From NCBI GenBank assembly GCA_037142195.1, contig JBAXBA010000005.1:430-64429 (forward strand): DNA of 64,000 nucleotides, given 5' to 3'. This DNA comes from Pseudomonadota bacterium (lineage in GTDB: Bacteria; Bdellovibrionota_B; Oligoflexia; Oligoflexales; CAIMVM01). Both the position numbers and the translations under genes were made by a program. Below are positions 2,960 through 50,706 of the stretch, piece by piece (within the stretch, counting starts at the first letter, position 1; every line of letters starts with the position of its first letter). Under the pieces are notes generated by a model, which had not been told where the DNA came from, searched no databases, and worked only from the letters and a program-made list of their open reading frames with translations.

Positions 2960-5900
2960 TTACTGCGAGAGATTGAGGATTCTCGAGATCGTCCTAAAAA
3001 TCAGGCGATCGGTTTTGAAGGAGGCAAATATTTCAGGAATATTGTCATTGTTGATATCAACTACCGAGATGCTGGTTGGGTCTGCCCCTTCCCCGCCCCA
3101 TAGGGCTGGTTTACATACCCCCGCTGCGCTGCTCGTACAAGTATAGAATGACTGCCCCACATTTCCTGTCAAAGTTTGCCGGGTCATCGACACAACGACA
3201 TCACCGTAACCGTCCGCATTGACATCGCCAACATCAAGGTCTCCCACGTATCCATTTAAAGCGATATAGCTACCAACGGTGCCTACGGACAAAGAGAACG
3301 CACCTGTGCTCGCATTGGTCACCGTTAAAGTAACGTTGTTTAAAATCCTCATGGAGTTGTTTAAATCAAGTCCGCCAATGGCCACATCCATGCCGGTTGC
3401 TGTCGATGTCGTTAGACGGGCAAACTTCATCGCAGTTCCGTTAGCTCCACCAGATTGGTTGATGGTGCTTCCGGTCTGGAGCACCCAGTTAGCGTCAGCA
3501 TTACGCCGGCTAATCCAAACAGCTTGAGTGGTGTAGCACAGAGTTGCCAGCTCCGGACGGCCATCCTGGTCGATATCAATGGCTTGAATCGAGCGCGGAT
3601 CGGTACACCCATTGAGAATATTATCAATGCGTTCCGCAGAAACAAAAGATCCGTCACCGTTTCCTTTCAGCCATGCTGCCACTGGTGAGAGCCCTGAGGT
3701 TGAGTTAATACCGACGATAACCACATCGGCAATACCATCCTGGTCCAGGTCCGCAATTGCCACTGCTTTAGGTTTAATGTCCTGACCAACTCCCAGCTCA
3801 TAAAGTGCCGGTGTTGCAAAATCACCATTGCTGCCACCAAGCGTAATAGCCACCCCACGGCTGGAATACCCGACGACCACTAGATCTGGTATCCCGTCGT
3901 TATTCAAGTCACCAACATCCATAATATTTTGGTTTGGATAGGTGTTGGGATACCCTTGCTGAACCCCCATGGAATTAAAGTAAGGATCTGGGAAGCATCC
4001 GCTTGCATCGGCTGGACAGCCACCCATGCTAGGGTTGGATAAATAGGCTGGGGATGGATTGGTGGCAATACTTAAGGTTGTTGCCCCCGAACTATTCGAC
4101 ACATAAGAGCCCACAAATGACTGGCTAGGAGAAAATGCAAACATATCCATAACGTTGTCGCCATTGGCATCACCAAACTTGGTGGCACCGATATCTGCGG
4201 GCATGAGGAACGACGTTGGAAACGCATCCAACATGGCGGCGCCCTTGAGCGGATCCAAAGAGCTCGAACCATTTCGCGCATAGACAATAAAATAAGGGTT
4301 CCCTGTGTAGTGATCATGTCCGGTGAATACAATATCGCGTCGCGTAGGTACGACAGGAATGGTCAGCGTCACACCGTTTGCTGCGCTTGATCCCAGAGCA
4401 TTTTGATTGATGGTGATGGTGGATGCGCCTGTGTTAACTGCCGTTACGTAAGCATAGTTGGCAATGTTGGTTCCGGATACTGATTGTCCAACTGCAATAT
4501 TGGTTGTCGACGATACGGTCATCGTCGGGCTGCCTGCGACGGTCGTAGCAGTCGGATAGACAAAAGACGTTGAAACTAATGGAACCTGCATCAACTCTTG
4601 GTTGGCACCCGCAGGCGCTGGGTAATCGATTCTAAGCGATGGTGTGCTGGCTTCAAACGGCGTTGTGCACGTTGCTGCAGAGCATTGATTAGGAAGCACG
4701 GCAAGACAGCTTTGCTGATATTGGTAACCGCCACCGTTGATCGCAGGCATCCAATACTCGCGACCACAGGTGGCCACAAGGGCTGGATAGGAACAGCTGC
4801 TTGATCCATCGATGCAGTAGGGAATCAGCTTTGCTGCTGCAGTCGTTGTCGTACCTCGACTCTGAAGCTGAGCCGTGGAGGCAGTGCCGCCCACAAACCC
4901 ATTGCCACTTGTCGGTGTTATGTAGACTCTAATATTTGCAGAGTTTGTGTTGGCTGTGCCCATGGCAAATGCCGCATCCGAGTATCCATCATTATTAAAG
5001 TCTGATACTGCGAGACCGCCTGGCCAAGTTTGTCCCACAAGGAGTTCATCTTGGTTGTTGCTTGATGCCGTTGAATGAATTTGGAAATCTCCTAGGCATT
5101 GGCCGCCACTATAAGTTTGTCTTGCTAGATAGCCGAAGGCCGAGTTTGATCCGCCTTGATCCATGCCTAAAATGACAATCCCTGGACAAGTGTCACTGGA
5201 GTTTGCTGCGCCGAGAGTCGGTTTAGCCGCTTTAAACCAGCCAACGCCCATATTGGTTACATCTCTCATCGCACGGCTTCCCGATGAGTAAAGTATGGGG
5301 CGTGCTGCCGCGGGGCCATAAAATTGTAGGCTGCTGGAGCCGGTGACACCTGGTGAGACGAAATTATAATTCATCGTGATGGTGTAGTTACCTGCGCTGC
5401 CCGTGATGCTTGCGACGGTTGTGCCAGCTTGAATGCCAGTTCCAGAAACTTGCTGCCCGGCAAAGATCTGAGGGGAGCCAAGTGATGCCACTCCTAGAAT
5501 CGTGTTGGTATTGACTGTCACATTGCCTGTTATCGTCGTGACCGCCTGCTGGGTAATCGAAACAGCGGTTGTCGTCGCGGTAGCGTTAGCGGAAAGCGTC
5601 AGCGTATAGGGGCCGGAGCCAGAAATACCCGTGATCGTTGTGTTTACAGGTATGCCAACGCCATAAATAACAGCCCCCACCCAAAGTCCTGTGACGGACG
5701 GAACACTCGTCATGGAGCTGCCACCAGATGTGATGTTTCCTGTGGTCGTGACATAGCCCTTAAAAATCGCGGCTCGCTGACTGGCGCTGCTGCAGTTGCC
5801 GTTAACGGCACATGTATTCAACATCGCGTAGATCATGGAGTCTGCAGTCGACGTGCCTGAAACAATCAAATCTTGGCGGCCATTGTTCACGCTATCCGGT

Positions 5901-8900
5901 CTTAGGTCACTGCGAACCTGCAGGTAGTAGGGATAGTTGGCAGCGTTGGCGCCGTTAGGCATCGGAAAGCAGGTTGACGAATTTGTAGAGAATCCGTTTG
6001 GCATACCAAACGTATCCACAGTGCCGCTATTCCACAGAACACAAACCTGCTTGCTAACCCTGTCAACGAAAACAATATCTAGCTTGGCATCCTGGTCGAT
6101 ATCAGCAATCCGCACATAGTTGATGTCGCTTGCAATCGATAAGGGAACATTTATCGAGGTGACGTTAGCACCAGCGAGAGGGATACGACCTTCGGCGTCG
6201 ATTTTCACAATTTGAAGGGATCTAGGTGCCGTATCAGCACGTGAGTGCACAACAAATTGCTGCGAGTTGCCGGTAATAGGGGCAATATCATAGGCCTGAG
6301 GATAGCATTGGGATTGACCCGTGCAGGGATCAGACCAACGGGCGGTTTTAAGATCAAGTCTCTTGCCAACGCTATTGACCTTTAGGGGCATATTTTTTGA
6401 TGCCACGAATCCATGTTGGTCCGTGAGTGACACAGCTAGAGTATAAGTCCCAGCTGCGTTGGGGGTTCCATAAATGCGACCTGTGGAATTGCTATAGTTT
6501 AGTCCAATGCCTGACAATGTTGTAGCTGCAGGAGATGTCACGGATACAGAATAAGTAAGTCTGGTCGCGGTGGAGCTCCCGTTAAACTGATTCACCCCGC
6601 CTGTTCGCCTGATGTCATACGCGTAGGGTGTGCCGACGACGGCCATTGGCAAGGATGAGTCTGTGAGTTTTGGCGGAATCGTGACATAAAGTGTATAAGC
6701 CGCAGCAGCTGTCTGATTGCCCAAAGAGTCCGTAGCGATGACACTAAAACTGTAGGTGCCACCATTGACAGCGGTATTGTAGGCCGGAGTCCCCTGGATT
6801 TTTCCGGCTGATGTGAGCGTCATGCCACTGGGTAAGCTGCCACTTGAAAGCGCGTAGGTGTATGGGGAATATCCGCCATTTGCATTAAGTTGCACTCCAG
6901 AACCATTGTTGTAAGCAACACCAGTCGCCGCTCTGGCAATGGTTGACGAAGCTAAGGTCAAGAGATTTCGAACCGAGACTGTGAATGCCCTCGTGGTTGA
7001 AAGAGCTGATGGGGTGCTGCTGTCAGTCACGGTTATATACGCAGAGTAGTCTCCGGAAGTCGAGTTAGTGAATCCTGCCAACGCACCCGTCGTTGGGTGG
7101 ATCGTCACACCGTTTGGTAATCCCGTGGCGGCATAAGTGTAGGGCGTTGTTCCACCTGAGACATTAATTTGGGCGGCATAATTCACACCGATCGCCACCA
7201 TCGGCAGGGAAGTGTTTAAAATCAAAACGCCATTCACCGTATCAATACATTTTACAGAAGCTCCCGATATTTGTGAGAGGCTGTCTGTCACGCGCACGGT
7301 GAATGAACCAGTGGGGCAAGTATTTGCGACGGAGGCAATGCCGCTCATCAAACCAGAAGTTGCTAAGCTTAGGCCAGCAGGCGCAGATCCTGCAGTGACG
7401 GCAAATGAGTAAGGCCCACGACCACCGCTAGCAGTTAATGTATAGCTGTAGGCAGACCCCAATACAGCGGCTGTTGGTGTCGCGCTTGTGACACTTGGCA
7501 CACTCACAATAGTGGTTAGGATCAGTGGAACGGTAGCACTGACATTGTTATTCGAATCCCTCGCCCGAACATAGATAGTGTAATTGGTTCCCGGAGACAT
7601 GGCTCCTGAATTCGTGGCCGCTGTTCCGAAGAATGCACCTGAGCTAGTGAGACCAATGCCAGACGGCAAGCTGCCTGTATATTGAAAGGTGTAGGGTCCG
7701 GATCCGCCAGTAGCCGTTAGACTGGTGGAGCTATTGGAATAAGCTGAACCTTCTGTGGCATTGGCAAGACTGCTATTGGTAATATTCACGGTAAAATTGT
7801 CCGTCGTTAAAGCGTAGGCGGTCGACGTTTGCACGTTGTTAGCATCGACGCTCTTGATCGTAAAGTTACGGGTGAGCCCCGCCTCGGATTCAGCAACTGT
7901 CCCGGATATTACGCCAGTTGATGCGTTCAGCGCCAAGCCCGATGGGAGTGTTCCAGACGTAAGACTATAAATATAAGGCGCCTGACCACCAGTGGTGGAA
8001 ATAAATCCATTGTAGTTTGCAGACGGAATGGCAGTGGGGAGTGTTGACGGTGAGATGGCTGTTGTGTAGCTTCCCACGAATCCTGGATAGCTTCCGCTAG
8101 TGGTCAAATTGGTGGTATCTGTGACCTGAACCGTGAAGAGATAGGCAGAGCCCTTTGTGCTGTATGCTGGCGTGCCCGAAATCACGCCTGAGGACGTCGA
8201 TAGTGACAATCCGCTAGGTAGACTTCCGTTTGAGATCGAATAGGCATAAGGCGGTGTTCCGCCTGACACGCTAATGGCTGCAACGTAGGGAGATCCCGCG
8301 CTCGGAGCAGGTATCGTCTGCGAGGCAATGGAAAGGCTAGCGGCAGTGCTTGATGCAACGGTTGCCGTATAGGTTTTATTGGCAGTTTGGTTGCTGGCGT
8401 CGGTCGTCGTGACTGTGAACGCAAAGGATTGCCCCGCAGTCGTGACGGATGGCGTTCCCGATAGGGTTCCGGAGCTCGGATTGAGGCTTACACCTGTGGG
8501 CAGAGAGCCTGAAGAAATCGTAAATGTGTAAGGCGACGAGCCTCCTGTCACGACGATCGGATAGGAGTAGGAAATCCCAGCAATAAATTGCGACAAGGAT
8601 GTTGAATTTATCGTGAGCAAAGATGTACCGGCATTTATGGTCCCTGTGAAGGATTTGACATCAAACGCACTGGATGCATCAGTTACGGTAATTGAAAAAC
8701 CGTAGCTCGCATTAGCGGAACTGACCGGGATGGTGCCCGTAATCGCTCCTGTGCTTGCGTTCAGTGCCAAGCCTGTTGGTAACGTACCACTGGTGAGAGC
8801 AAACGTTAGCGGAGTAATGCCACCTGCAGTCGATATGCCTGTGGAGACTGGACCCACGCCAAGACCTGGAATAGTTGTGGATACTACCTTTACGCTGCCC

Positions 8901-11263
8901 ACGGGGTTATTGGCAATGGTTCCGATAAATTGCTGGGTGACAGTTTGTGAACCTGAATCTGAAGCCCGCACTGTAAAGGAATAAGCCTGACCTCCTGATG
9001 TGACAGCAGGAGTTCCTGATAGGACCCCCGTCGTCGGATGGATAGCAAGACCAGCTGGTAGGCTACCTGTGATGATAGTAAAGCCATAGGGCGTAGTTCC
9101 GCCCGAAACCGTAAGTGGGAAGGAATACGCGACGCCAGCTGTGACGGGAGATAGCTGTGTGGAGAGTATTGACAATACGGAAGATCCAGCATTGACAGTT
9201 CCGGTGAAGCTTTTGCTTGAAGAAATTCCGGCGGAATCAACCACGGTCACGGAAAATCCGTAGTTGGTGTTACCTTGCGAAATCGGCACTGTACCGGTTA
9301 TGGCGCCTGTTGTAGTGTTGATCGAAAGTCCGGAGGGCAAAGCTCCGCTTGAAACCGCGAAAGTCAGTGGTGTAACGCCGCCAGACGTCGACACGCCCGT
9401 GGACACCGCCCCTACTGCGATGCCAGGAATCGTTGTGGAGACAATCTGCACTCCACCAACAGGGTTAGCGGCAACTGTTCCAACCAGGGAAACCGTTTGA
9501 GTTTGCGAAGCCGCATCGGTCACACGGATGGTAAACGAATAGGCTTGGCCACCAGATGTAATCGCTGGGGACCCCGAAATTATACCTGTTGACGCACCAA
9601 GCGAAAGGCCTGAAGGCAGCGTGCCGCTAGTGACGGCGAATGCGTAGGGTTTTGAACCACCTGATACCGCGATGGGAAATGAGTACGTAATGCCAGCAGT
9701 CACCGGAGAGATCGCCGTTGTGATCATTGATAACAGCGCCGAACCGGGATTAATGGTACCAGAAAAACTTTTGCTTGCTGTGGCACCTGCTGCATCCGCG
9801 ACAGCGATGGAAAATCCATAGTTAGCGTTGCCTGCAGAAACGGGGATGGTTCCCGTGATGGCACCTGTTGTGGTGTTGATCGAGAGGCCAGCTGGTAACG
9901 TTCCACTGGAAACACTGAACACCAGGGGAGCGACGCCGCCACTTGTTGAAATCCCCGTAGAAACGGCCCCCACAGCCATGCCAGGTACCGTCGTCGATAC
10001 GATCTGAATGGAGCCCACTGGGTTTGATGCAACGGTGCCAACAAATGAGTTCGTCTGACTTTGAGCACTCGCATCAGTCACCCTGATAGTCACGCTATAG
10101 GAACGACCTCCGGTAGTGATACCTGGAGTGCCTGAGATAATACCCGTTGCGCTATCAAGACTGAGTCCCGTTGGGAGTGCCCCCGATGCTACCGAGAATG
10201 CATAGGGAGCCGTGCCGCCTGTTGCAGAAAGGGGGAAGTTATAACTAATGCCCGCAGCAATAGTCGAAAGGCTTGTTGTGATCAAAGTCAACACCGAGGA
10301 ACCAGGATTGATGGTTCCCGTAAAGCTTCGCGTTGCCGCAGAGCCAGAAGAGTCCGTCACAGTTACGGAGAAGCCGTAGCTCGAGTTGGCAGCACTGACA
10401 GGCACGGTGCCGCTTATGGAGCCAGTCATCGGGTCAATGGAAAGTCCTGATGGCAAGGTTCCACTGCTGACCGTAAAATGCAGAGGCGTGGCTCCGCCCG
10501 CCGTAGAAATTCCCGTCGAAACAGCCCCCACGCCCACACCTGGAATCGATGTCGACACAATTTGAATCGCTCCGACAGGGTTGGCAGAGACTTGGCCTAC
10601 AAATGAAATCGTCTGTATTTGGGATGCAGAATCAGAGACCTTGACCACGACTACATAGGATTGTCCACCAGAGCTAATCGCCGCAGTTCCTGAAATGACC
10701 CCTGTCGTTTCGTCAAGCAAAAGCCCAGCAGGCAATAAGCCGGTGGAGATGGCGAATTTATACGGCGTGGTTCCGCCAACGACCGCAACCGGAAATGAAT
10801 AAGGCACACCCGCAGTCACCGCAGACATCTCGGTGCTCACAATTGACAGCAAGGCATTTCCTGGATCCACTTTACAATTAAATACACGAAGATCGGATAA
10901 CCCCGCAGCATCGGTCACTTTGATGGTTGGTGTATAGGTTTGATTCGCGGCAGCTGGAGGAATGGTTCCACTGATTTGGCCCGTGAGTGGATCCATGATC
11001 AGCCCACTTGGGAGCTGGCCATCTGAGATGGAGAATGTGAGAGGCAACACGCCCCCTGCAGTAGAAATACCAGTTTGAACTACGCCGACGGTCATACCTG
11101 GAAGTGTTTTTGAAACAATTTTGACACCGGACGCCGAAGCTTGACCAGCTGAAAGATCTGCTACCTTGCCACCGCAAGCTTGCAATAGCAGAAGAGACAG
11201 TATCGTTACCATACTGACAAGCACTGAATGGATGCGTCCTAACATGGGATTGAAGTGTTTCAT
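2960..11263 (-). CDS. Giant surface lipoprotein 1 (~2767 aa): 17 putative-Ig (He_PIG) domains plus FG-GAP/VCBS propeller head; probable adhesin
   Basis: Start reassigned to ATG at 11263 (AGGAG RBS upstream). Lipobox LLQA-C. Repeated GGxxPYxFxxxSGxLPxGLxLxxxTGxISGTP motif. C-terminal DxD/NxDG blades (DIDQDAK, DFNNDG, DANGDN, DLNNDG, DLDQDG, DIDQDG, DVNADG, DINNDN). Confidence 0.9.
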   Translation of the reverse strand: MKHFNPMLGRIHSVLVSMVTILSLLLLQACGGKVADLSAGQASASGVKIVSKTLPGMTVGVVQTGISTAGGVLPLTFSISDGQLPSGLIMDPLTGQISGTIPPAAANQTYTPTIKVTDAAGLSDLRVFNCKVDPGNALLSIVSTEMSAVTAGVPYSFPVAVVGGTTPYKFAISTGLLPAGLLLDETTGVISGTAAISSGGQSYVVVVKVSDSASQIQTISFVGQVSANPVGAIQIVSTSIPGVGVGAVSTGISTAGGATPLHFTVSSGTLPSGLSIDPMTGSISGTVPVSAANSSYGFSVTVTDSSGSAATRSFTGTINPGSSVLTLITTSLSTIAAGISYNFPLSATGGTAPYAFSVASGALPTGLSLDSATGIISGTPGITTGGRSYSVTIRVTDASAQSQTNSFVGTVASNPVGSIQIVSTTVPGMAVGAVSTGISTSGGVAPLVFSVSSGTLPAGLSINTTTGAITGTIPVSAGNANYGFSIAVADAAGATASKSFSGTINPGSALLSMITTAISPVTAGITYSFPIAVSGGSKPYAFAVTSGTLPSGLSLGASTGIISGSPAITSGGQAYSFTIRVTDAASQTQTVSLVGTVAANPVGGVQIVSTTIPGIAVGAVSTGVSTSGGVTPLTFAVSSGALPSGLSINTTTGAITGTVPISQGNTNYGFSVTVVDSAGISSSKSFTGTVNAGSSVLSILSTQLSPVTAGVAYSFPLTVSGGTTPYGFTIITGSLPAGLAIHPTTGVLSGTPAVTSGGQAYSFTVRASDSGSQTVTQQFIGTIANNPVGSVKVVSTTIPGLGVGPVSTGISTAGGITPLTFALTSGTLPTGLALNASTGAITGTIPVSSANASYGFSITVTDASSAFDVKSFTGTINAGTSLLTINSTSLSQFIAGISYSYPIVVTGGSSPYTFTISSGSLPTGVSLNPSSGTLSGTPSVTTAGQSFAFTVTTTDASNQTANKTYTATVASSTAASLSIASQTIPAPSAGSPYVAAISVSGGTPPYAYSISNGSLPSGLSLSTSSGVISGTPAYSTKGSAYLFTVQVTDTTNLTTSGSYPGFVGSYTTAISPSTLPTAIPSANYNGFISTTGGQAPYIYSLTSGTLPSGLALNASTGVISGTVAESEAGLTRNFTIKSVDANNVQTSTAYALTTDNFTVNITNSSLANATEGSAYSNSSTSLTATGGSGPYTFQYTGSLPSGIGLTSSGAFFGTAATNSGAMSPGTNYTIYVRARDSNNNVSATVPLILTTIVSVPSVTSATPTAAVLGSAYSYTLTASGGRGPYSFAVTAGSAPAGLSLATSGLMSGIASVANTCPTGSFTVRVTDSLSQISGASVKCIDTVNGVLILNTSLPMVAIGVNYAAQINVSGGTTPYTYAATGLPNGVTIHPTTGALAGFTNSTSGDYSAYITVTDSSTPSALSTTRAFTVSVRNLLTLASSTIARAATGVAYNNGSGVQLNANGGYSPYTYALSSGSLPSGMTLTSAGKIQGTPAYNTAVNGGTYSFSVIATDSLGNQTAAAAYTLYVTIPPKLTDSSLPMAVVGTPYAYDIRRTGGVNQFNGSSTATRLTYSVSVTSPAATTLSGIGLNYSNSTGRIYGTPNAAGTYTLAVSLTDQHGFVASKNMPLKVNSVGKRLDLKTARWSDPCTGQSQCYPQAYDIAPITGNSQQFVVHSRADTAPRSLQIVKIDAEGRIPLAGANVTSINVPLSIASDINYVRIADIDQDAKLDIVFVDRVSKQVCVLWNSGTVDTFGMPNGFSTNSSTCFPMPNGANAANYPYYLQVRSDLRPDSVNNGRQDLIVSGTSTADSMIYAMLNTCAVNGNCSSASQRAAIFKGYVTTTGNITSGGSSMTSVPSVTGLWVGAVIYGVGIPVNTTITGISGSGPYTLTLSANATATTTAVSITQQAVTTITGNVTVNTNTILGVASLGSPQIFAGQQVSGTGIQAGTTVASITGSAGNYTITMNYNFVSPGVTGSSSLQFYGPAAARPILYSSGSRAMRDVTNMGVGWFKAAKPTLGAANSSDTCPGIVILGMDQGGSNSAFGYLARQTYSGGQCLGDFQIHSTASSNNQDELLVGQTWPGGLAVSDFNNDGYSDAAFAMGTANTNSANIRVYITPTSGNGFVGGTASTAQLQSRGTTTTAAAKLIPYCIDGSSSCSYPALVATCGREYWMPAINGGGYQYQQSCLAVLPNQCSAATCTTPFEASTPSLRIDYPAPAGANQELMQVPLVSTSFVYPTATTVAGSPTMTVSSTTNIAVGQSVSGTNIANYAYVTAVNTGASTITINQNALGSSAANGVTLTIPVVPTRRDIVFTGHDHYTGNPYFIVYARNGSSSLDPLKGAAMLDAFPTSFLMPADIGATKFGDANGDNVMDMFAFSPSQSFVGSYVSNSSGATTLSIATNPSPAYLSNPSMGGCPADASGCFPDPYFNSMGVQQGYPNTYPNQNIMDVGDLNNDGIPDLVVVGYSSRGVAITLGGSNGDFATPALYELGVGQDIKPKAVAIADLDQDGIADVVIVGINSTSGLSPVAAWLKGNGDGSFVSAERIDNILNGCTDPRSIQAIDIDQDGRPELATLCYTTQAVWISRRNADANWVLQTGSTINQSGGANGTAMKFARLTTSTATGMDVAIGGLDLNNSMRILNNVTLTVTNASTGAFSLSVGTVGSYIALNGYVGDLDVGDVNADGYGDVVVSMTRQTLTGNVGQSFYTCTSSAAGVCKPALWGGEGADPTSISVVDINNDNIPEIFASFKTDRLIFRTISRILNLSQ
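8336..11125 (-). repeat. Five tandem two-domain (A+B) Ig units, 558-nt / 186-aa period, in giant lipoprotein 1
   Basis: The Asn codon of the NPVG junction recurs at 10580, 10022, 9464 and 8906, exactly 558 nt apart. A domains begin xIVSTxIPG; B domains begin LxxxTxxLS. Confidence 0.9.
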
Positions 11264-11627
11264 AGCATCTCCTTGCAAACTAACTTTCGCACAGAAAAAA
11301 TTAGGCGAATTTCCTAGCAACGGTTAGCCCCCTTCATGTTTGGGCTAGAACCCTTCCCGCCTTTAAGTCAGTTCGGCTTCTCTCCGTATAAGTTAATAGA
11401 TTTCTAAAAGGCGCAATAAAAACGGGTTGTTAATCGCGCTAAATGAGTAGAATTACCTAAACTCAATTCCCTAAATTCACAGGACAAATGGGAACAGAAC
11501 TGCATAATCTCAAGAAATAAGTAACGATTTGCCGTGTCTAAGCAAACCAGAATAATGCCCACTTGGTGGCCTCAGTTATAAGTTTCCTGTAGCGGATGGT
11601 TTTATCTTTCGCACAAGTTATTTTGTG

Positions 11628-14600: not shown

Positions 14601-17600
14601 CCAACCGATTTTGATATCATAGATGTAAGATAGACCCATAGAGCCACTTACAAGGGGCGTATGGGCGTTAGGTCCAAAGACCAAAATGGATGTGGCTGCA
14701 CTCGCCGAAGCGGCACTGGACATCGTGACGCTCGTATTGGCCACGATAGAGACTACGGTAGATCCTGCAGGAAAATTCCCCCCAGAGACCGATTGACCGA
14801 CGCTGATCCCAGCAGTGGAAGCAGTGGTGAAGGTACTCGAGTTTAAGGTGCTATTGCCAGTCAGAGTGTTGCCTGTCGGCCAAGAGATGCCAACGCCTGA
14901 AGTATTGGAGCTGGCATTTTGTGACATGGTAATACACGGCGTGGTGCCGCAGCCCGAGTTGACAGCGGTGATGGTTGTATTTGCTGGAATGTTTGCGCCG
15001 ATTACGGGTAGGCCAACCGCAAGGCCCGTGCTGCTTGTCAGAGAGTTGATGGTATTACCGCTTGTGGTTCCCGTGGCCGCGGCATAATTACGAAAAATCG
15101 TCGATCTAGAAGCGGTACACGCTCCATTGACCGCACAGTTGTTATAGAGCATGAAGAACGTTCCTTGGTTGTTACCATTCATGGAGGTCACGATGATGTC
15201 TTGTTTACCGTAGTTAGTTGCATCTGGTCTTAAATTGTTGGTGACCGAAAATGTATAAGGATAGTTGTTACTATTAGCGCCCGTAGGAATCGGGAAACAA
15301 TCGGTATTGCCAGCGGAAAATCCGCTCGGCATCCCGTAGGAATCGACGTTGACTAAGCCTCCGCTGCCAGCATTCCACATCACACAGATCATTTTGTTAG
15401 TGGTATCATTATAGAGAATATCCTTGTATCCATCTTGATCCATGTCGGCCACACGCACGTTCAAGGGCGTGATGGCATTGGGACGGGAGGGCAAGGGAAC
15501 GTTAATCGTGACAATCCCAGTTCCAGCCAAAGGCACCCGACCTGTGGAGTCAATTTTTGCGATCTGGAGTGACCGTGGAGTCGTGTCTGTGCGTTGGGAG
15601 ATGAGAAATTGTTGTGAGGTGTTGGTTATTGCGTCTATCGTTGCAGTTCCTGGGTTGCACTGGGTGCTGCCTGTGCAAGGATCAGATACGTGGGCGGATT
15701 TTAAATCAAGTGTTTTACCGGTTGCGCGAATCGTGAGCGAGAGATTTTTTGTACCGGTAAAGCCATATTGATCGGTGATGGTAATACCGACCGTATAGGT
15801 TCCAGAGGCAGTGGGTGTGCCGTAAATTCTTCCTGTCGTCGCACCATAAGCGAGCCCGCTTGACGTAAGTCCAGTAACCGCATAACTCAGCTGCGTCGCG
15901 TTAGCGCCGGCGGTTAATAGATTCACACCGCCTGTGCGCTTGATGTCGTAGGCATAGGGCACGCCTACGACAGCTGCGGGCATGACTGATCCAACCACTT
16001 TAGGTGGCACCGTAATATTTATAGTGAAGCTGGCAGCCGAGGAAACATTGCCGATCGTATCCCTTGCAGTGACAGCAAACGTATAACCCCCCCCATAACT
16101 GGCTGCGAGATTGCTTGGTGTTCCAGAAATCAAGCCATCAGAGGACATAGAGAGTCCTGGAGGCAAAGAACCAGATGTAATTTTGTAGATATAAGAATTG
16201 CCCGGCGCCTGACCGCCCGAAGCAGCTAACTGAACGCCGCTGCCATTATTGTAGGGCACACCAACGGCACCTCGCACCAGGGTGGTGCCCGTTAGGGTGA
16301 CTAAATTAATGACGGAGATCTGAAAGGTTCTCGTACTCTTAAGCGGCGGTGTAGAGCTGTCGCTAATGGTGATGTAAAGTGTGTAGATGCCAGGTGCCGC
16401 GGACACGCCTGTGGATTTTAGCTCACCGGTAGCGGAAACGAGGCTAAAACTATTTGGTAAATTTGTCGCCGAGTAAGTGAATGGCGAGGTCCCCCCAGAA
16501 CCCATCATGGTTGTGGAATAACTAGGTCCGACGATGGCGGCAGGGAGTCCACCGTTTGTGATCAAAACGCCGTTGAGCGCTGTAATGCATTTGATGGACG
16601 CCGCTGAGATCTGCGACAAGGCGTCTGTAACCCTGACCGTGAATTGCCCAGCAGGACAGCTAACCAAAGTGGTTGGAATGCCGGATATGGTTCCAGAATC
16701 AGCGATCGTCAAACCAGCAGGTAAAGATCCACCTGTCACAGCAAAGGCATAGGGTGCACGACCTCCGGTGGCTGTTACCGTATAGGAATAAGCTGACCCA
16801 AGAACTCCCGAGTCAGGGGTGAAAGCATCAACTTCGGGGCTGCTTACAACCGTGCGCAGCGCCAAAGTAACGGGCGTGCTGATACGATTGAGCGCATCAC
16901 GCGCACGAACGGTGATGCTGGTTGAAGTGCCTGGCGAAACGCCTCCTGTATTCACAGCAGGTGTGCCAAAGAATACCCCCGTGGATGTCAATCCCATTCC
17001 GGAAGGCAAAGTTCCCGTGTACTCAAATGTATAGGGCCCGGTACCGCCAGTTGCCGCAAGTGCCGTCGACGCGTTGGAATAGGCGATCCCCTCGGTGGCT
17101 GGGGATAGTGATGATGTCGTCACCGAAACCACAAAAGAGCTCGTGGTAAACGAGTATGTCGAGCTGGTTTGCACACCGTTGGCATCAGTGCTTTTGATGG
17201 TGAAGTTCCTTGTGAGTCCAGCCTCAGATTCTGCAATCGTGCCGCCAAGAGATCCATTGGAAGAGTTGAGCGCCAGACCAGAAGGAAGGTTACCAGACGT
17301 GCGTGCATAGGTGTAGGGTGCCTGACCTCCTGAAGAGGCCAGGTAAACACTGTAGGCGCCCCCTGGAGCTCCGTCAGGAAGAGACGCTGGCAGCAACGTG
17401 GTCAAATAGTCGCCCACGGTGCCGGTGTAGGTTTGCTCACTGGTCAAACTGTTACTATCGGTGACTCGAATCACAAAAAGATAGGATGAGATTCTAGCAC
17501 TTTTATTGACCGTGCCAGAAATCCCTCCCGTTGCGGAGTTTAAAGTCAAGCCACCAGGAAGACTGCCTGAGCTGACTGAGAATGTATAAGGCGATGTTCC

Positions 17601-20600
17601 ACCTGACACCGCGAGTCCTACAGCATAGTTTTGACCGGCAACCGGGATAGGAATGGTGCTGGTCGTGATCGACATATTGGCAATAGAGCTTGATTGCACT
17701 GTGCCGATGTAGGTTTTACTAATGGATAAGCCACCGGTGTCGGCGACCCTAATAGTGAATCCATAAGAGTTTCCTGCTGCTGCAAAAGTCGGTTTTCCTG
17801 AGATGATGCCGCTCACGGTATTGAGTGTGATGCCTTCTGGTAACAAGCCACTGGTCACGCTAAACGAATAAGGTGCCGTTCCACCTGTCATTACCAGGGG
17901 CATCGAATAACTGATCCCTGCGCTGAATGGGGCCAGATTCACAGAATGATTCGTTAGGATGGAGTCTCCCGGATCGACGGTTCCTGTGAAGGCTTTAAGA
18001 TCGGAAGCTCCGGTGTCGTCGGTCACGGTGAGTGAGAAGCCATAGTTTGCATTGCCAGCACTAACTGGAATCGTGCCAGTGATAGCACCCGTTGTGGAGT
18101 TTAAGCTTAGCCCCTCAGGCAGGGCTCCTGAGGAGATGGTAAATGTAATCGGCATCACCCCGCCAACAGTTGGCAGACCCGTACTCACTGGACCGACCGC
18201 AATTCCTGTCATTGTGGAGGATGCGAATTTGACAGGGGGTATGGGGTTGTTGCCCACATTGCCAACTATCGATAGGGTTTGTACCTGGCTTAGGGTATCC
18301 GTCACACGGATGGTAAATGAATAGGCTGCCCCTGCAGAAGTCAGGCTTGGCGTTCCGGCGATGAGCCCTGTCGATGGACCCATCGATGTGCCAATGGGAA
18401 GGCTTCCAGCTCCGATAGTAAAGTTATAAGGAGGACTCCCGCCGACAACAGTGACTGGAAAATTGTAAGGTATGCCAGCTGTAAAGTTTGGTACTTGTGT
18501 ACTGATCATGGCCAGAATGTGTGTTCCAGGGTCTATAATTCCGGTGAAACTTTTGGTTGCTGTGCTACCGGTTGAATCCGTCACTGAGATGGAAAAGCCG
18601 TAGTTTGCGTTACCCGCCGAGAGAGGCAGAGTTCCAGTGATGGAACCATTGCTGGTGTCAAGTGCTAGTCCAGTGGGCAAGGTACCACCTGCCAAAGCAA
18701 ATGTTAACGGCGCAAGCCCGCCAAACACGGAAATCCCCGTGGAGACCGTTCCCACCATAATGCCAGGGACATTGTTCGATACAATTTGGACTGGGCTCAC
18801 TGTGATATATTGGACGTTGCCCACAAACGATGCCGACTGTGTTTGCGACACATGATCCGTCACGGTAATCGAAACCGAGAAAGCTTCGCCTCCCGAGGTC
18901 AGAGGTGGGGTTCCGGATATAACTCCTGTTGTTGGATCTAACGAAAGTCCAGATGGAAGAGCACCGCCTGAAATAGAGAAAACATAAGGCGTGACGCCAC
19001 CAGTCACAGCGACCGCGTAATTGTAGTTTATGCCTACGGTAATCGGAGCAAATTCTGTCGACACCAGATTTAAGACCGTGTCTTTCGGGTCGACCGTTCC
19101 TGAGTAGCTACGATTGGCGGATAACCCTGTCGCATCAGTGACGGATATCGAAAAACCAAAATTATGGTTACCTTCAGACACTGGTATGGTTCCAGAAATC
19201 ATTCCGGTTGATGTATTTAAAGTGAGACCATTCGGCAAAGTTCCGCTTGTGAGTGCAAAAGTCAAAGGAGGCACGCCCCCAGATGTTGAGATTCCATAGC
19301 TGAGCGGGCCAACGGCAATACCAGGCAGCGATGTAGTCAAGACTTGCAAAATGCCGTAAGGATTTGCTGCGATGTTTCCCACAAAAGAGGCTGTTTTTTC
19401 TTGCCCCCCAGCATCTGAGACCTTAATGGTAGCTGAATAAGAGGTCCCGCCAGATGTAAGATCAGGAGTTCCAGCGAGAGTGCCCGTATCTGGGTCTAAA
19501 GCTAGTCCAGGAGGTAGCGAGCCTCCAGGAACAGTGAATCTGTAAGGTGTCATGCCACCCGCCACTGCAAACTTATAAGAGCAGTGCACGCCGGCGGCGA
19601 CAGCCGGTATATTATTGCTAACCAGCGTTAGGACCGATGATCCTGGGTCGATCCGTCCCGTAAAACTGCGACTTGTCGCCACGCCCACTGCATCCCGAAC
19701 GGTGATAGAAAAACCGTACGTGGAATTGGCAGCTGTGATTGGGATAGAACCGCTCAAGATCCCCGTTGAGGGATGGAGTGTCAGTCCAGCCGGTAGGGTC
19801 CCACTGGTCAAAGTAAACGTCAAAGGCAAGGCTCCACCCGTGGTTGAAATGCCTGTAGAGACAGCCCCAACGGCTAGTCCGGGAATAGCGGTAGACAATA
19901 TCTGCACCACCCCGGTGGGATTGGGATTCACTGTACTTTGGAATGTAGCCATGGCAGTTTGATTCAGAGCGTCAGTGCCTTTGATGGCGATGACGAAATT
20001 TTGTCCACCGCTTGTAAGTGCAGGAGTTCCTGAAATAAGGCCGTTTGACGGGTTTAGAGTCAATCCGATGGGAAGCTTTCCAGATGTAAGCGCATAGGAG
20101 TAAGGCTTCACGCCACCGGTCATTTGAATCGCAAATGAATAGCTAACACCAGCCGACATGGATGCAAGCTGCGAGGTCAGAAAGGAAACCTCAGAGCTTC
20201 CAGGTGCGACGCTTCCACTAAATTTTCTAGTGGCAGAATTCCCACCAGAGTCGAACACCTCGGCAGTAAACGCATAATTTTGATTTGCATATTGGTTCCC
20301 TATGGAGCCAGAGATCGTTCCAGCGCTTTGATCCAGAGTTAAGCCTATTGGCAATGCTCCTGACGAAATCGTGTACTTGAGAGGCATAGCGCCCCCTATC
20401 GTAGAGATCGCCGTAGCCACCTCTCCAACCTGAATGCCCTGAATGCTTGTCGATACGATTTGAACGGGTGAGAGGGCTGGAGCACTGGAGGTCACCTGTG
20501 CCACCTTACCGCTACAGGCATGCAAAGCAAAACCAAGCAAAGCCCACGCTAGCATTAAGGTGCTGCGCAACTTCTGTACTTTTTTTTGCATCCCCTGGCC

Positions 20601-20603
20601 CAT
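11628..20603 (-). CDS. Giant surface lipoprotein 2 (2991 aa), paralog of lipoprotein 1
   Basis: GAGGGG RBS; lipobox LHA-C; same 17 He_PIG domains and FG-GAP/VCBS head. Colinear with paralog 1 (AESEAGLTRNFTIKS, PYAYDIxRTGGVN, CTDPRSxQAxDID, DRLxFRTIxRILN). Confidence 0.9.
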   Translation of the reverse strand: MGQGMQKKVQKLRSTLMLAWALLGFALHACSGKVAQVTSSAPALSPVQIVSTSIQGIQVGEVATAISTIGGAMPLKYTISSGALPIGLTLDQSAGTISGSIGNQYANQNYAFTAEVFDSGGNSATRKFSGSVAPGSSEVSFLTSQLASMSAGVSYSFAIQMTGGVKPYSYALTSGKLPIGLTLNPSNGLISGTPALTSGGQNFVIAIKGTDALNQTAMATFQSTVNPNPTGVVQILSTAIPGLAVGAVSTGISTTGGALPLTFTLTSGTLPAGLTLHPSTGILSGSIPITAANSTYGFSITVRDAVGVATSRSFTGRIDPGSSVLTLVSNNIPAVAAGVHCSYKFAVAGGMTPYRFTVPGGSLPPGLALDPDTGTLAGTPDLTSGGTSYSATIKVSDAGGQEKTASFVGNIAANPYGILQVLTTSLPGIAVGPLSYGISTSGGVPPLTFALTSGTLPNGLTLNTSTGMISGTIPVSEGNHNFGFSISVTDATGLSANRSYSGTVDPKDTVLNLVSTEFAPITVGINYNYAVAVTGGVTPYVFSISGGALPSGLSLDPTTGVISGTPPLTSGGEAFSVSITVTDHVSQTQSASFVGNVQYITVSPVQIVSNNVPGIMVGTVSTGISVFGGLAPLTFALAGGTLPTGLALDTSNGSITGTLPLSAGNANYGFSISVTDSTGSTATKSFTGIIDPGTHILAMISTQVPNFTAGIPYNFPVTVVGGSPPYNFTIGAGSLPIGTSMGPSTGLIAGTPSLTSAGAAYSFTIRVTDTLSQVQTLSIVGNVGNNPIPPVKFASSTMTGIAVGPVSTGLPTVGGVMPITFTISSGALPEGLSLNSTTGAITGTIPVSAGNANYGFSLTVTDDTGASDLKAFTGTVDPGDSILTNHSVNLAPFSAGISYSMPLVMTGGTAPYSFSVTSGLLPEGITLNTVSGIISGKPTFAAAGNSYGFTIRVADTGGLSISKTYIGTVQSSSIANMSITTSTIPIPVAGQNYAVGLAVSGGTSPYTFSVSSGSLPGGLTLNSATGGISGTVNKSARISSYLFVIRVTDSNSLTSEQTYTGTVGDYLTTLLPASLPDGAPGGAYSVYLASSGGQAPYTYARTSGNLPSGLALNSSNGSLGGTIAESEAGLTRNFTIKSTDANGVQTSSTYSFTTSSFVVSVTTSSLSPATEGIAYSNASTALAATGGTGPYTFEYTGTLPSGMGLTSTGVFFGTPAVNTGGVSPGTSTSITVRARDALNRISTPVTLALRTVVSSPEVDAFTPDSGVLGSAYSYTVTATGGRAPYAFAVTGGSLPAGLTIADSGTISGIPTTLVSCPAGQFTVRVTDALSQISAASIKCITALNGVLITNGGLPAAIVGPSYSTTMMGSGGTSPFTYSATNLPNSFSLVSATGELKSTGVSAAPGIYTLYITISDSSTPPLKSTRTFQISVINLVTLTGTTLVRGAVGVPYNNGSGVQLAASGGQAPGNSYIYKITSGSLPPGLSMSSDGLISGTPSNLAASYGGGYTFAVTARDTIGNVSSAASFTINITVPPKVVGSVMPAAVVGVPYAYDIKRTGGVNLLTAGANATQLSYAVTGLTSSGLAYGATTGRIYGTPTASGTYTVGITITDQYGFTGTKNLSLTIRATGKTLDLKSAHVSDPCTGSTQCNPGTATIDAITNTSQQFLISQRTDTTPRSLQIAKIDSTGRVPLAGTGIVTINVPLPSRPNAITPLNVRVADMDQDGYKDILYNDTTNKMICVMWNAGSGGLVNVDSYGMPSGFSAGNTDCFPIPTGANSNNYPYTFSVTNNLRPDATNYGKQDIIVTSMNGNNQGTFFMLYNNCAVNGACTASRSTIFRNYAAATGTTSGNTINSLTSSTGLAVGLPVIGANIPANTTITAVNSGCGTTPCITMSQNASSNTSGVGISWPTGNTLTGNSTLNSSTFTTASTAGISVGQSVSGGNFPAGSTVVSIVANTSVTMSSAASASAATSILVFGPNAHTPLVSGSMGLSYIYDIKIGWFIAAKPNLPTVKAQSVNDCPGVVVAGTWNGNNSFSYWYVVRQTWTGSQCAGDFTTHNASDEYLISGSGAYPSWIAVDDFNSDGISDVVTSLSQNMGTSASIRGYINGNTGNSFSGGNSFTTQLQSRGASYLGGDTLLSYCLNGSASCSYPSLVAKCTRGTNASGTQNYGCLSVIPNQCSTPGCSTPFENATPAARIDYPGPNNGYLFPAPLVSTSNLTPNGTITNASTSITAVSSIASIQTGQPLMCIDDACADSFLTFSGDVKNTNTITNISTSITSQLQVGQAIRCMTANCALIPANTFITAVASGTITLNQTMLGTASATNVSITSRKAAVAPVYLTGATITNGSATITGLSSTTNIQIGQPVTCVTANCVALLANNYVVSKTVNSITMNFGAIAAQGSAAIVIPQSVIPPYSYVTNASGSTITINQPAVTGSTLTGVKISVPSVPTRLDVATISTDAGYSFPYFTVFARNGSSTTDPFKAATMLDSFPGAYLQAADIGTMRMGDSNGDGLLDLYTVSPQQSFMGSYVSNSVGVSTGVGVGPAPYYLANPSQNGCPTDAASCFPDPVFNSLGVQQTYPNTYNNQNILDTGDLNQDGIPDAVVSGYWSRGVSTAMGSVYGDFAQPKLYEMGTFATNVTGTATSNSTQITGLVNLGSPALYAGQLVTGTGIGSGTTISSITGSGPYVLNLSSAYTGSSGSITISGLWFKANAPQSIALSDVDQDGILDLIVVGVDKTPGASIGVARQFKGNGDGTFQTPTNIDGVVGSCTDPRSVQAVDIDLDGRPELAVICYTSQQIIVSRRFVSTAYPSGSWITSATNINAAGAGSYGVVMKWGRLSTGSASGVDVALAGLDATRSLRMISGVTISSINNSTGAFTLSAGTYGPYVILFGYPSDIGIADLDSDGRGDVIVPMQRQTGSLLYSGSIWYTCTSTGDGLCQPKSWGMEGILANAVTSGDVDGDGQEDLFISYYLDRLMFRTIARILNISY
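17676..20465 (-). repeat. Five tandem A+B Ig units, 558-nt period, in giant lipoprotein 2
   Basis: Equivalent junction codons at 19920, 19362, 18804 and 18246, exactly 558 nt apart. Confidence 0.9.
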
Positions 20604-49112: not shown

Positions 49113-49121
49113 GGAGGATTT

Positions 49122-50648: not shown

Positions 50649-50676
50649 TTGATAGTTGTAAAAGTAAAAGTATCGT

Positions 50677-50706
50677 CCGAGCTGGCTTCTCACCAGCTCG
50701 GTTTCT
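50677..50706 (+). terminator. Probable rho-independent terminator
   Basis: Perfect 9-bp stem CCGAGCTGG-cttctca-CCAGCTCGG followed by TTTCT, just after the S8 stop. Confidence 0.65.

Follow-up and report, generated by a model that had tools for sequence, protein, structure and literature searches.

The window analysed here, a 64,000-nucleotide stretch of DNA, encodes two giant predicted lipoproteins, p2 and p1, whose genes follow one another in the same direction on the minus strand. The p1 open reading frame probably starts at the ATG at 11263, giving a protein of 2767 aa, the same length as its database copy P0003. As the original prediction held, the two genes are colinear tandem paralogs (50% identity by BLASTP). 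Each product carries a signal resembling a lipobox, 17 He_PIG domains and an FG-GAP head. Its claim that the length difference stems mostly from a module of ~70 aa also agrees with our pairwise MAFFT alignment, in which the surplus of p2 over p1 consists of three insertions of 236 aa in total, corresponding to three module equivalents. The p2-only blocks comprise 121 and 41 aa (p2 residues 2222-2342 and 2372-2412) and 29 and 45 aa (p2 residues 2636-2714). A further giant protein, with FG-GAP_2 matches in Pfam, is encoded near the pair at 24240-30446. The features of the locus are listed in the table.

Table. Features of the p1/p2 locus, in positions of the window (aa, residues of the encoded protein)
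Feature	Position	Strand	Description
P0331	1438-2946	+	502 aa; convergent with p1; candidate partner of the giant proteins
p1	2960-11320	-	ORF of 2786 aa; giant predicted lipoprotein
p1 head	2963-6400	-	predicted FG-GAP double propeller; 8 D-x-D-x-D-G-type motifs
p1 site S2 module	4367-4555	-	aa 2256-2318; inside blade 7 of propeller 1
p1 site S1, second module	5348-5533	-	aa 1930-1991
p1 site S1, first module	5552-5743	-	aa 1860-1923
p1 stalk	6401-11173	-	17 He_PIG Ig-like domains (Pfam, 17 stretches, E 1e-170)
p1 signal peptide	11174-11263	-	ends in lipobox-like L-Q-A-C; Cys codon 11174-11176
Terminator-like hairpin	11525-11549	-	just 3' of the p2 stop; consensus match only
p2	11628-20603	-	2991 aa; giant predicted lipoprotein
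p2 head	11631-15752	-	predicted FG-GAP double propeller with six module equivalents; 8 D-x-D-x-D-G-type motifs
p2 site S3 module	12492-12686	-	aa 2640-2704; in propeller 2; absent from p1
p2 site S2, host module C-half	13281-13367	-	aa 2413-2441; HMM positions 32-61
p2 site S2, two complete modules	13386-13805	-	13626-13805 (aa 2267-2326) and 13386-13583 (aa 2341-2406)
p2 site S2, host module N-half	13860-13946	-	aa 2220-2248; HMM positions 1-29
p2 site S1, two tandem modules	14691-15077	-	full copies 14886-15077 (aa 1843-1906) and 14691-14861 (aa 1915-1971)
p2 stalk	15753-20513	-	17 He_PIG Ig-like domains (Pfam)
p2 lipobox-like Cys30	20514-20516	-	codon

The signal Cys is invariant in all 25 family members, each of which has a small residue (A, S or G) at position -1, and the G-K-V-A motif that follows the Cys in p1 is conserved in 22 of the 25. 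The residues at positions -2 and -3 (Q, H, P, T) are non-canonical, a point against lipidation. On balance, p1 and p2 are probably lipidated, and they would be anchored in the outer membrane and exposed at the cell surface. The stalk had been predicted to be constant, which is true of the p1/p2 pair; elsewhere in the family it varies, from 7 to 32 He_PIG domains among the six homologs scanned. Each stalk contains 3 Cys, versus 20 in the head of p1 and 28 in that of p2.

At the C-terminus, both proteins match FG-GAP and FG-GAP_3 in Pfam. The AF2 model of the head (pLDDT 81.8, pTM 0.81) contains only beta structure, arranged in about 14 blades of four strands, and it superimposes on seven-bladed propellers with Z of 20-21 over 290-320 residues (VIA-align), several of these matches covering residues 707..1144 of the model. 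The head thus models as two seven-bladed FG-GAP beta-propellers. The modules are assigned to blade loops from DSSP strings, pLDDT values and the ranges of the alignments.

The module spans 60-70 aa and is confined to p1 and p2 in the whole 4.0-Mb genome, as searched with a module HMM against six-frame ORFs. The HMM recovers three copies in p1 and six in p2, all inside the ranges predicted earlier. One of these ranges, 13263-13952 in p2, had been read as three copies; the range is right, and what it holds is one module split around two complete ones rather than three copies in tandem. Both complete modules, positioned between the halves of the host module, carry a Cys-x4-Cys loop. As a less circular control, an HMM built from the three p1 copies only was run on p2 against a background of 200 shuffled heads. 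Four p2 copies scored 13.5-31.2 bits versus a shuffled-head maximum of 7.2 bits; the half copies were borderline at 7.9 and 6.4 bits, and the copy at residues 2341-2406 did not rise above 5 bits with this small model. Site S2 of p2 holds two modules nested within a split one along the chain, and they would presumably be nested in three dimensions as well.

Next to p1 lies the gene P0331, whose product contains a signal peptide, a CarboxypepD_reg/PEGA-like middle and a C-terminal part resembling an outer-membrane barrel, with Phe as its last residue. A Pfam search returned no family even at E<=5 and a profile search of solved chains no match below E 0.2, and the protein looks like an outer-membrane barrel outside known families. 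In the phylum set, the head is present in 8 of 131 genomes (4 of 55 genera), and the P0331 family in 10, including all 8 head-bearing ones, in counts that include kin, five of the eight belonging to one genus. In a ninth genome, G058, degraded head pieces adjoin a P0331 homolog. The giant and barrel genes lie side by side in convergent orientation in G000, G027, G085, G058 and the metagenome contig L056, and G085 keeps the gene order of the window, p2-like and then p1-like. G080 has the barrel gene, and no head was found in it; neither gene was found in G001 (RpoB 100% identical; 95% complete, 370 contigs), where both may simply be unassembled. The barrel gene thus co-occurs with the giant genes, and P0331 probably exports, anchors or otherwise serves their products. 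It is rather doubtful that the link reflects shared ancestry or genomic-island transfer with no functional tie, even though the locus seems to have been exchanged horizontally (families at 72% RpoB identity have p1 stalks that are 84% identical), its distribution is patchy, and the barrel gene lies away from any giant gene in G032 and contig L055. The pairing holds in three other families at 26-30% identity for the barrel and about 35% for the head, even in genomes with the two genes on different contigs, and some head-bearing genomes should have lost the barrel gene if it were a mere passenger.

Homologs of the head bear out the proposal that module number and site vary. Across 26 family members, the count per protein ranges from 2 to 7 module equivalents, distributed over four sites: S1 holds two copies in 21 proteins, three in 2 and one in 3; S2 holds one copy in 21, two in 2, and a split module with two nested copies in 3; S3 is filled in 3 proteins and S0 in 2. 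Sites S1 and S2 are filled in every one of these closer homologs. In contrast, the module HMM found no copy in the distant homologs of G027 and G040 (about 35% identity), in which the blades are contiguous and the alignment runs uninterrupted through S1 and S2; the module-free homolog of G040 retains the He_PIG and FG-GAP architecture. Since these two homologs have none, the modules are insertions rather than blades, and the folding of the isolated module as a barrel in models (see below) further supports the predicted autonomous inserted domains. A module tree, built on some 60 aligned residues, joins the S3 modules of the p2 clade to the second S1 copies of the p1 clade at a support of 0.97, and the S0 modules to the first S1 copies of the p2 clade at 0.96. 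The new sites S0 and S3 and the nesting belong to one clade and are kept in three proteins that are 52-79% identical there. Divergence is faster in the head than in the stalk, a mosaic pattern of conservation: when p1 is compared with its p1-like counterpart in G085, the stalks are 84.0% identical, as against 57.5% for the propeller-1 scaffold and 38.7% for the S1 modules, and a further comparison gave a similar picture. This mosaic goes beyond the original prediction, as do the split module, the module-free homologs and the barrel gene at 1438-2946.

The isolated module was modelled as a six-stranded beta-barrel (pLDDT 86.3, pTM 0.75), and the same six strands are present in the head model. 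Its best solved match, by sequence profile and by fold, is Gp7, a phage decoration protein in PDB entry 8ECI (profile E 0.01; Foldseek TM 0.70, rmsd 2.7, 27% identity; VIA-align Z 8.3, rmsd 2.4 over 70 residues). All Foldseek E-values against the PDB exceed 0.04, and the fold is a common small barrel that also matches F1/V1-ATPase crown and translation-factor domains (VIA-align Z 4.5-6.6). Seven matches in BFVD at E<=1e-3, with TM of about 0.8 and up to 41% identity, are predicted phage tail-collar, fibre and virion proteins, and PHROGs gave weak matches to virion structural proteins; the likeness to phage structural proteins, suggested in the original prediction, is thus real. The module has no model in either Pfam or NCBIfam, and its profile retrieves 5180 representative proteins at E<=1e-3, of which 805 remain at the stricter E<=1e-10. 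Many of these carry long tandem arrays, up to 24 stretches per protein, and the module also occurs in the outer parts of hook-associated or flagellin-like flagellar proteins.

Gp7 of Arthrobacter phage Bridgette is a free protein of 126 aa that attaches as dimers around capsid pentamers (10.1101/2022.09.09.507160). Because this one solved relative decorates a capsid, the modules could by analogy be structural. On such a reading, the architecture stands as described, the modules are padding or stabilisers whose number follows neutral copy-number drift of a duplication-prone repeat, and any binding resides in the propellers. The long arrays, typical of spacer or extender repeats, and the constant filling of S1 and S2 would fit it. 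We nevertheless consider it unlikely, given that S0, S3 and the nesting arose in one clade and were kept, that no part of the p1 clade diverges faster than the S1 modules, and that tail collars, fibres and outer flagellar parts are exposed, interaction-prone positions.

The explanation that we favour as a whole, with moderate confidence, is that p1 and p2 are tandem paralogs within a rare family of giant cell-envelope adhesins, built of a lipid-anchored Ig stalk, a double propeller and plug-in modules, the module being a member of a very large unnamed family used also on phage virions. In this putative model, the lipoprotein-type signal would allow an N-terminal lipid to anchor the protein in the outer membrane, from which the stalk of 17 He_PIG Ig domains would extend. 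The tip would consist of two seven-bladed FG-GAP propellers, presumably calcium-binding and rich in disulfides. Small six-stranded barrels grafted into the head loops would have been duplicated within the head, would have relocated from site to site and from one paralog to the other and, in p2, would have come to lie one inside another, yielding a variable displayed surface on a constant scaffold. The modules most likely add or alter a surface that binds ligands, which would be glycans or proteins belonging to other cells or particles. It is quite improbable that p1 and p2 instead form part of an envelope or coat, or a scaffold that spans the periplasm or is secreted, such as an S-layer-like sheet or an FG-GAP sensor or enzyme platform: FG-GAP/VCBS propellers do occur across extracellular proteins of varied function, a giant FG-GAP_2 protein is encoded nearby, and identical contigs over p1 in the RNA library of the sample best holding this DNA hint weakly that p1 may be an abundant product, but Pfam and NCBIfam searches found no enzymatic, toxin or S-layer domain in either protein, and one N-terminal anchor followed by a long Ig stalk with a globular head at its far end is how adhesins are usually built. 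The architecture of p1 and p2 suggests an adhesin that changes its binding target by adding or moving modules.

This arrangement is reminiscent of several known systems. The mosaic adhesive trimer (MAT) proteins of Bdellovibrio are trimeric beta-helical fibres with a conserved N-terminal domain of ~130 aa and, in 13 of 21, an S74 chaperone-protease domain; as p1 and p2 are predicted to be, they are long surface proteins with conserved proximal and diversified distal parts and elements common to phage fibres (PMC10769870). In contrast, p1 and p2 have an Ig stalk, propellers and a lipobox-like signal. Membership of the MAT family was considered and rejected, as p1 and p2 lack a beta-helix and, by Pfam, an S74 domain. 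Giant RTX adhesins of Gram-negative bacteria, such as LapA, MpIBP and SiiE, share the very long Ig-like stalk, variable in length among relatives of p1 and p2, which holds ligand-binding modules, putative ones in p1 and p2, away from the cell. RTX adhesins are exported by type I secretion, bear RTX repeats at the C-terminus and are retained by an N-terminal plug, whereas p1 and p2 lack RTX repeats by Pfam and have a lipobox-like N-terminal anchor and a double-propeller tip. Surface lipoproteins have dedicated outer-membrane helpers, such as Slam/DUF560 and similar proteins; P0331 is comparable as a predicted barrel with a periplasmic N-terminal part, encoded beside a predicted lipoprotein and co-occurring with it, but differs in matching no Pfam family.

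Among phage proteins, the module differs from Gp7 in being an insert in a cellular propeller. Small barrels within receptor-binding tailspikes (the phi92 and K1F endosialidases, the phi92 colanidase gp150 and the KP34p57 depolymerase) match it weakly (Foldseek E 0.04-0.4, VIA-align Z 6.7). In the endosialidases, the small barrel is itself an insert in a beta-propeller, an arrangement for which our literature search found no paper; tailspikes are trimeric enzymes, whereas p1 and p2 have no visible catalytic domain. Finally, the head resembles integrin alpha in its seven-bladed FG-GAP propeller with D-x-D-x-D-G calcium loops and in an autonomous domain, optional among relatives, in a loop between blades. 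In integrin alpha-type propellers, the inserted domain is the I domain. In the p1/p2 family, the insert is a six-stranded barrel of 60-70 aa rather than a VWA domain, up to seven inserts occupy four sites, some of them nested, in two propellers, and they are carried by a bacterial protein of lipoprotein type that has a He_PIG stalk.

The two giant predicted lipoproteins p1 and p2 are colinear and share 50% identity. For p1, the ATG at 11263 is the most likely start; the resulting protein of 2767 residues is also present in the protein collection, as P0003. Pfam analysis revealed 17 He_PIG Ig-like stretches in each protein (PF05345; 555 and 489 bits, gathering cut-off 24), with FG-GAP_3 (77 and 86 bits, cut-off 26.9) and FG-GAP (51 and 68 bits, cut-off 22.1) toward both C-termini. 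The pair had been predicted to differ by copies of a module of about 70 residues inserted in loops of the C-terminal head. Indeed, pairwise alignment places the extra length of p2 at the modules, in two places: 121 plus 41 residues at p2 2222–2412, and 29 plus 45 residues at p2 2636–2714. Against all six-frame ORFs of the 4.0-Mb genome, the module profile matched p1 and p2 only, with three copies in p1 and, in p2, five full copies plus one N-terminal and one C-terminal half; every copy lies within a range proposed in the original prediction. As a less circular control, a profile was built from the three p1 copies alone, with 200 shuffled heads as background. Four p2 copies scored 13.5 to 31.2 bits, versus a shuffled-head maximum of 7.2 bits, the two half copies were borderline, and one full p2 copy was missed by this small model. 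The two-paralog module observation is confirmed. The G+C content of p1 and p2 is 0.49–0.53 against 0.43–0.46 in the flanks, which may reflect only their Gly/Ala/Thr-rich composition.

Features of the window, with positions on the whole stretch
Feature	Position	Strand	Description
p1	2960-11320	minus	ORF of 2786 aa
p2	11628-20603	minus	ORF of 2991 aa, in tandem with p1
P0331	1438-2946	plus	502 aa, convergent
Small protein gene	125-781	plus	218 aa, signal-like N-terminus, alternating hydrophobic pattern, without Pfam match; from its sequence, possibly a small outer-membrane barrel
Lipocalin	21537-22088	plus	Lipocalin_2, E 1e-20; between p2 and the third giant gene
Third giant protein	24240-30446	plus	2068 aa, about 3.6 kb from p2 on the opposite strand; seven FG-GAP_2 stretches plus Big_9, cadherin-like and fn3 matches; no match to the module profile
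Secreted-protein gene run	48174-52508	plus	Lcl_C domain protein, subtilase S8, papain-like C1 protease

Translations and the family alignment display a signal peptide with a charged n-region and a hydrophobic h-region. The hydrophobic stretch is followed by a small residue, a Cys and the motif G-K-V-A. All 25 family members have the +1 Cys and an A, S or G at position –1, and 22 of them carry G-K-V-A. Positions –2 and –3 of the lipobox are not canonical, –2 often being Q, H, P or S (L-Q-A-C in p1 and L-H-A-C in p2). We read the N-terminus as a putative lipoprotein signal, in which the Cys that would carry the lipid is followed by a family-specific motif. The first He_PIG domain of both proteins starts within about 20 residues of the signal. 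The stalk of He_PIG domains had been proposed to be constant; this holds only within the p1/p2 pair, and the six homologs scanned carry 7, 8, 16, 16, 20 and 32 He_PIG stretches. At the C-terminal end, the motif R-T-I-x-R-x-L-N-x-S-Q/Y is kept in 24 of 25 members, the remaining sequence being cut off, and corresponds to the last propeller strand of the head model.

The p1 head (1146 residues) was aligned to that of p2 and to 24 homologs from the database, and its structure was then predicted. The model is all-beta (mean pLDDT 81.8, pTM 0.81) and contains about fourteen four-strand groups by DSSP. VIA-align matched it to seven-bladed propellers (Z 20–21, 290–320 residues aligned), many rows spanning model residues 707–1144. 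When the complete head was compared with the PDB, Foldseek returned the multi-propeller proteins DDB1, SF3B3 and CPSF160 at a TM of about 0.2, which indicates a multi-propeller build and nothing further. We read the modelled head as two putative seven-bladed FG-GAP propellers, the blade numbering and exact loops being taken from the DSSP string. Eight D-x-D-x-D-G-type motifs per head were counted at the sequence level. Moreover, the p1 and p2 heads contain 20 and 28 Cys residues, respectively, versus 3 per stalk, and many of these are invariant across the family. These features would fit a calcium-binding, disulfide-bonded protein outside the cytoplasm. An Atlas search with the head yielded generic FG-GAP clusters only (scores ≤0.82). 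Separately, 35 contig loci retrieved with patterns from the head alignment were discarded as unrelated FG-GAP proteins, the patterns being generic FG-GAP motifs.

Comparison of 26 family members (p1, p2 and P0004–P0027) located the modules at four sites, S0–S3.

Insertion sites of the module in the head of 26 family members
Site	Location	Copies
S0	between blades 1 and 2	1 copy in 2/26 proteins
S1	between blades 3 and 4	2 copies in 21/26, 3 in 2/26, 1 in 3/26
S2	within blade 7	1 copy in 21/26, 2 in 2/26, split module plus two nested copies in 3/26
S3	hairpin of blade 10, propeller 2	1 copy in 3/26 proteins

Neither number nor position is invariant among these proteins. Furthermore, the module profile finds no copy in two more distant homologs, about 35% identical, which are encoded in G027 and G040. 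In BLASTP, p1 runs straight across S1 and S2 in both. At S1, 168–200 p1 residues stand opposite 24–48 residues of the module-free homologs, and at S2 the flanking alignments overlap on the module-free sequence. The module-free protein of G040 retains a lipobox-like start, 11 He_PIG domains and an FG-GAP head. The modules are accordingly inserted domains rather than integral blades. Three members of the p1 clade (P0006, P0007 and P0008) carry a different insert of about 50 residues just after S1, resembling T-Y-I-I-x-S-L-G-T-S-N-F-T...F-T-A-T-G, owing to which their scaffold is 65–80 residues longer; it may represent a second type of plug-in.

At S2 of p2, P0021 and P0023, the profile order is an N-terminal half (positions 1–29), two full modules and a C-terminal half (positions 32–61). 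A tandem array would give whole units; this order is the one expected from insertion of two modules into a host module. The six p2 copies of the original prediction were correctly placed, but its S2 group is a host module split around two whole ones. Together, the two p2 halves match the one module that p1 has at S2. At its end the host half has a Cys-x4-Cys loop, the same as the two inserted modules have at that turn, and from sequence we read the arrangement as a putative insertion in the beta3–beta4 turn of the host. In p2, a blade would thus host a module that itself hosts two modules.

A FastTree phylogeny of 87 full modules, which is weak because it relies on about 60 columns, places the S3 modules of the p2 clade not beside their own S1 modules but, at support 0.97, beside the second S1 module found in the p1 clade. 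The S0 modules join the first S1 module of the clade they belong to (support 0.96), and the S1 triple of P0016 and the S2 pair of P0010 are local duplications. At the level of these sequences, the tree shows apparent movement between sites. Variable number and place, module-free homologs and movement in the tree all speak for the modules being plug-ins. The central idea of the original prediction, a scaffold displaying variable modules, thus survives its own tests, its function being what we infer. With inserts ranging from none through one, two and three to nested ones on a single double-propeller scaffold, the family forms a natural graft series, useful for the study of adhesin specificity change and as a template for engineered display scaffolds.

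The three module segments of the p1 head model (217–285, 286–360 and 615–682) have six strands each at pLDDT 78–94. An isolated S2 module, modelled from an alignment of 14 copies (pLDDT 86.3, pTM 0.75), has the same six strands as within the head. A likeness to phage structural proteins had been suggested in the original prediction, and database comparisons bear it out. The best solved match by all methods is the Gp7 decoration protein of Arthrobacter phage Bridgette (8ECI). The profile match, a tentative one at E 0.01 and 19 bits, aligned 61 positions, including the V-G...G-I-P-x-G-T-T-I core; Foldseek gave a TM of 0.70, an rmsd of 2.7 and 27% identity; and VIA ranked it first among 48161 chains (Z 8.3, rmsd 2.4 over 70 residues). 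Gp7 sits as dimers around capsid pentamers, according to the report of that structure (bioRxiv 10.1101/2022.09.09.507160). In BFVD, a set of predicted viral structures, seven matches were found at E≤1e-3 (E down to 4e-6, TM about 0.8, rmsd 1.3–1.7), among them virion and fibre proteins of cyanophages and, at 41% identity, a Bordetella phage tail collar protein. By Foldseek, VIA and BFVD, the fold common to the module and Gp7 covers the whole domain. PHROGs gave weak matches to virion structural proteins. Next among the solved structures come small barrels found in capsule depolymerases, in the colanidase and endosialidase of phi92 and in a phage tail tube protein. Because translation-factor barrels and the F1/V1 ATPase crown barrels match too, the module fold is a common one.

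Searching 1.84 billion representative proteins with the 14-copy module profile gave 5180 matches at E≤1e-3, of which 805 remain at E≤1e-10 and 65 at E≤1e-30; a single protein carries as many as 24 module stretches. The carrier sequences read contain the V-G-x-x-V-x-G-x-G-I-P-x-G-T-T-I core in clean tandem arrays, hence the matches are not low-complexity noise. Pfam analysis of 33 carriers taken from the best 150 found Ferritin_2 in six at E≤1e-9 and in a seventh at E 9e-4, below the Pfam cut-off. Flagellin_N occurred in three, Big_13 in two, PEP-CTERM and DUF11 in one each, and a sub-threshold RecR_C alone in one; 18 were without any match. Across these 33 carriers the module itself has no Pfam model, and NCBIfam likewise has none. 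The six Ferritin_2 carriers combine that domain with 8–13 module copies. In the Flagellin_N/FlgL-like carriers (P0059, P0073, P0075 and others), 8–12 tandem modules replace the usual outer domains, and one carrier is named flagellar hook-associated protein 3, from a Geobacter strain. The module is a very large domain family without a name, common to phages and flagellar proteins. It connects the surfaces of phage virions with cellular adhesins and with the outer domains of flagellar proteins, and a family model of it would annotate thousands of 'hypothetical' proteins.

Next to p1, and outside the coordinates of the original prediction, lies the convergent gene of P0331, whose product has a signal peptide, two conserved Cys residues and a C-terminal Phe. 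In Atlas, its middle part resembles CarboxypepD_reg/PEGA domains attached to outer-membrane barrels (score 0.91). The C-terminal 200–300 residues are outer-membrane-barrel-like in Atlas's own model (TM by row 0.66–0.75). This likeness is generic, covering outer-membrane barrels, DUF481 and PEGA. No Pfam family, the DUF560 barrel of the Slam translocators included, was found for any of four homologs at E≤5, and no solved chain matched below E 0.2. P0331 is a putative barrel of no known family.

The distribution of P0331 follows that of the head. Within the same order (41 genomes), the only four genomes with a P0331 match are the four that have the head. Across 131 genomes of the phylum, the head (E≤1e-40) occurs in eight and the P0331 family in ten, all eight included; five of these eight belong to one genus, leaving four independent lineages. 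G058, which has P0331 but no full head, carries degraded head pieces right beside its P0331 copy. At this locus (G058:C94:7344-9438), head query residues 773–870 are fused directly to 1030–1145, beside a shortened P0331 homolog, and it looks like a decaying copy. In G080, the P0331 family is present and the head was not found. The two genes are adjacent and convergent in the genome studied here (G000), G027, G085, G058 and a 2.1-kb metagenome contig; they lie about 6 kb apart in G040, and apart in G032 and contig L055. The gene order of G085, p2-like and then p1-like, is as in the window. Some surface lipoproteins have dedicated helpers. By analogy, and with no claim of membership, P0331 is a candidate exporter or anchor of the giant proteins. 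Co-occurring as it does, it offers a candidate route for a very large lipoprotein to reach or stay at the cell surface outside model organisms.

The family is rare and patchy, with 24 database homologs besides p1 and p2 and, within the phylum set, members in four of the 55 genera. Two congeneric genomes gave no match to the family; one of them has an RpoB that is 100% identical, but its assembly comprises 370 contigs, so the family may lie in unassembled sequence there. We used RpoB as a yardstick between G000 and G085, a member of a different family, in which it is 72% identical. The stalk of p1 shares 84.0% (1336/1590) with the p1-like stalk of G085:C15 (L058 9699-17144), the propeller-1 scaffold 57.5%, the S1 modules 38.7% and the S2 module 79.4%. 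P0005 and P0007 show the same mosaic of conservation; in the p2 clade the contrast between stalk and head is absent, identity being 65–79% throughout. That the stalk exceeds RpoB in identity suggests either that the stalk or locus passed between lineages or that the head has diverged much faster. PEP carboxylase and the glutamate synthase large subunit, both encoded in the window, were not found in G085, G032 and G027 at E≤1e-50, which hints at differing core metabolism within the order. Named relatives of the PEP carboxylase reach only about 50% identity and come from MAGs labelled Deltaproteobacteria or Bradymonadaceae. DNA of the window is present in freshwater metagenome runs of four studies. 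The contigs matching 2960–20603 displayed no joints, indels or module-number variants, and such contigs drop rare variants. No RNA run is listed among the runs containing the window DNA. The RNA library of the best-matching sample contains six identical contigs on p1 (3165–10224) and none on p2, at most a weak hint of p1 transcription, as DNA can occur in such libraries.

Taken together, we read p1 and p2 as probable modular giant adhesins, with three features worth follow-up: nested grafting on a propeller scaffold, the very large nameless domain family common to phages and flagellar proteins, and the strictly co-occurring gene of a putative barrel. A wider and rather doubtful model would make the locus a self-contained surface-display system. 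In this model, a dedicated outer-membrane barrel of no known family would export or hold a giant N-terminally lipidated adhesin, whose double-propeller head would serve as an evolvable socket board. A phage-type receptor-binding barrel would be copied, moved between sites and paralogs and inserted into itself, resulting in retargeting, and the locus or stalk would be exchanged between families of a little-known freshwater phylum.

Assignment to the RTX adhesins was rejected, as there is no RTX/HemolysinCabind Pfam match and the C-terminus is the last propeller strand. The mosaic adhesive trimer (MAT) fibres of Bdellovibrio have a trimeric beta-helix, often an S74 domain and a conserved, beta-rich N-terminal domain of about 130 residues directly after the signal peptide (PMC10769870). 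At that position p1 and p2 have their first He_PIG domain; they were rejected as MAT fibres, given that their Pfam matches are He_PIG and FG-GAP only, without Peptidase_S74, and that their heads model as propellers. The original prediction did not recognise the architecture as described; targeted literature searches likewise found no account of a He_PIG plus FG-GAP lipoprotein or of the module, and it is on this ground that we call it undescribed. With phage virion surface proteins, p1 and p2 have the module in common as a building block. Giant repeat adhesins carry binding modules at the distal end of a long Ig stalk, a layout common to p1 and p2, where binding by the modules is predicted. 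The insertion itself is reminiscent of the integrin alpha subunit with an inserted domain, in which an optional binding domain lies between the propeller blades.
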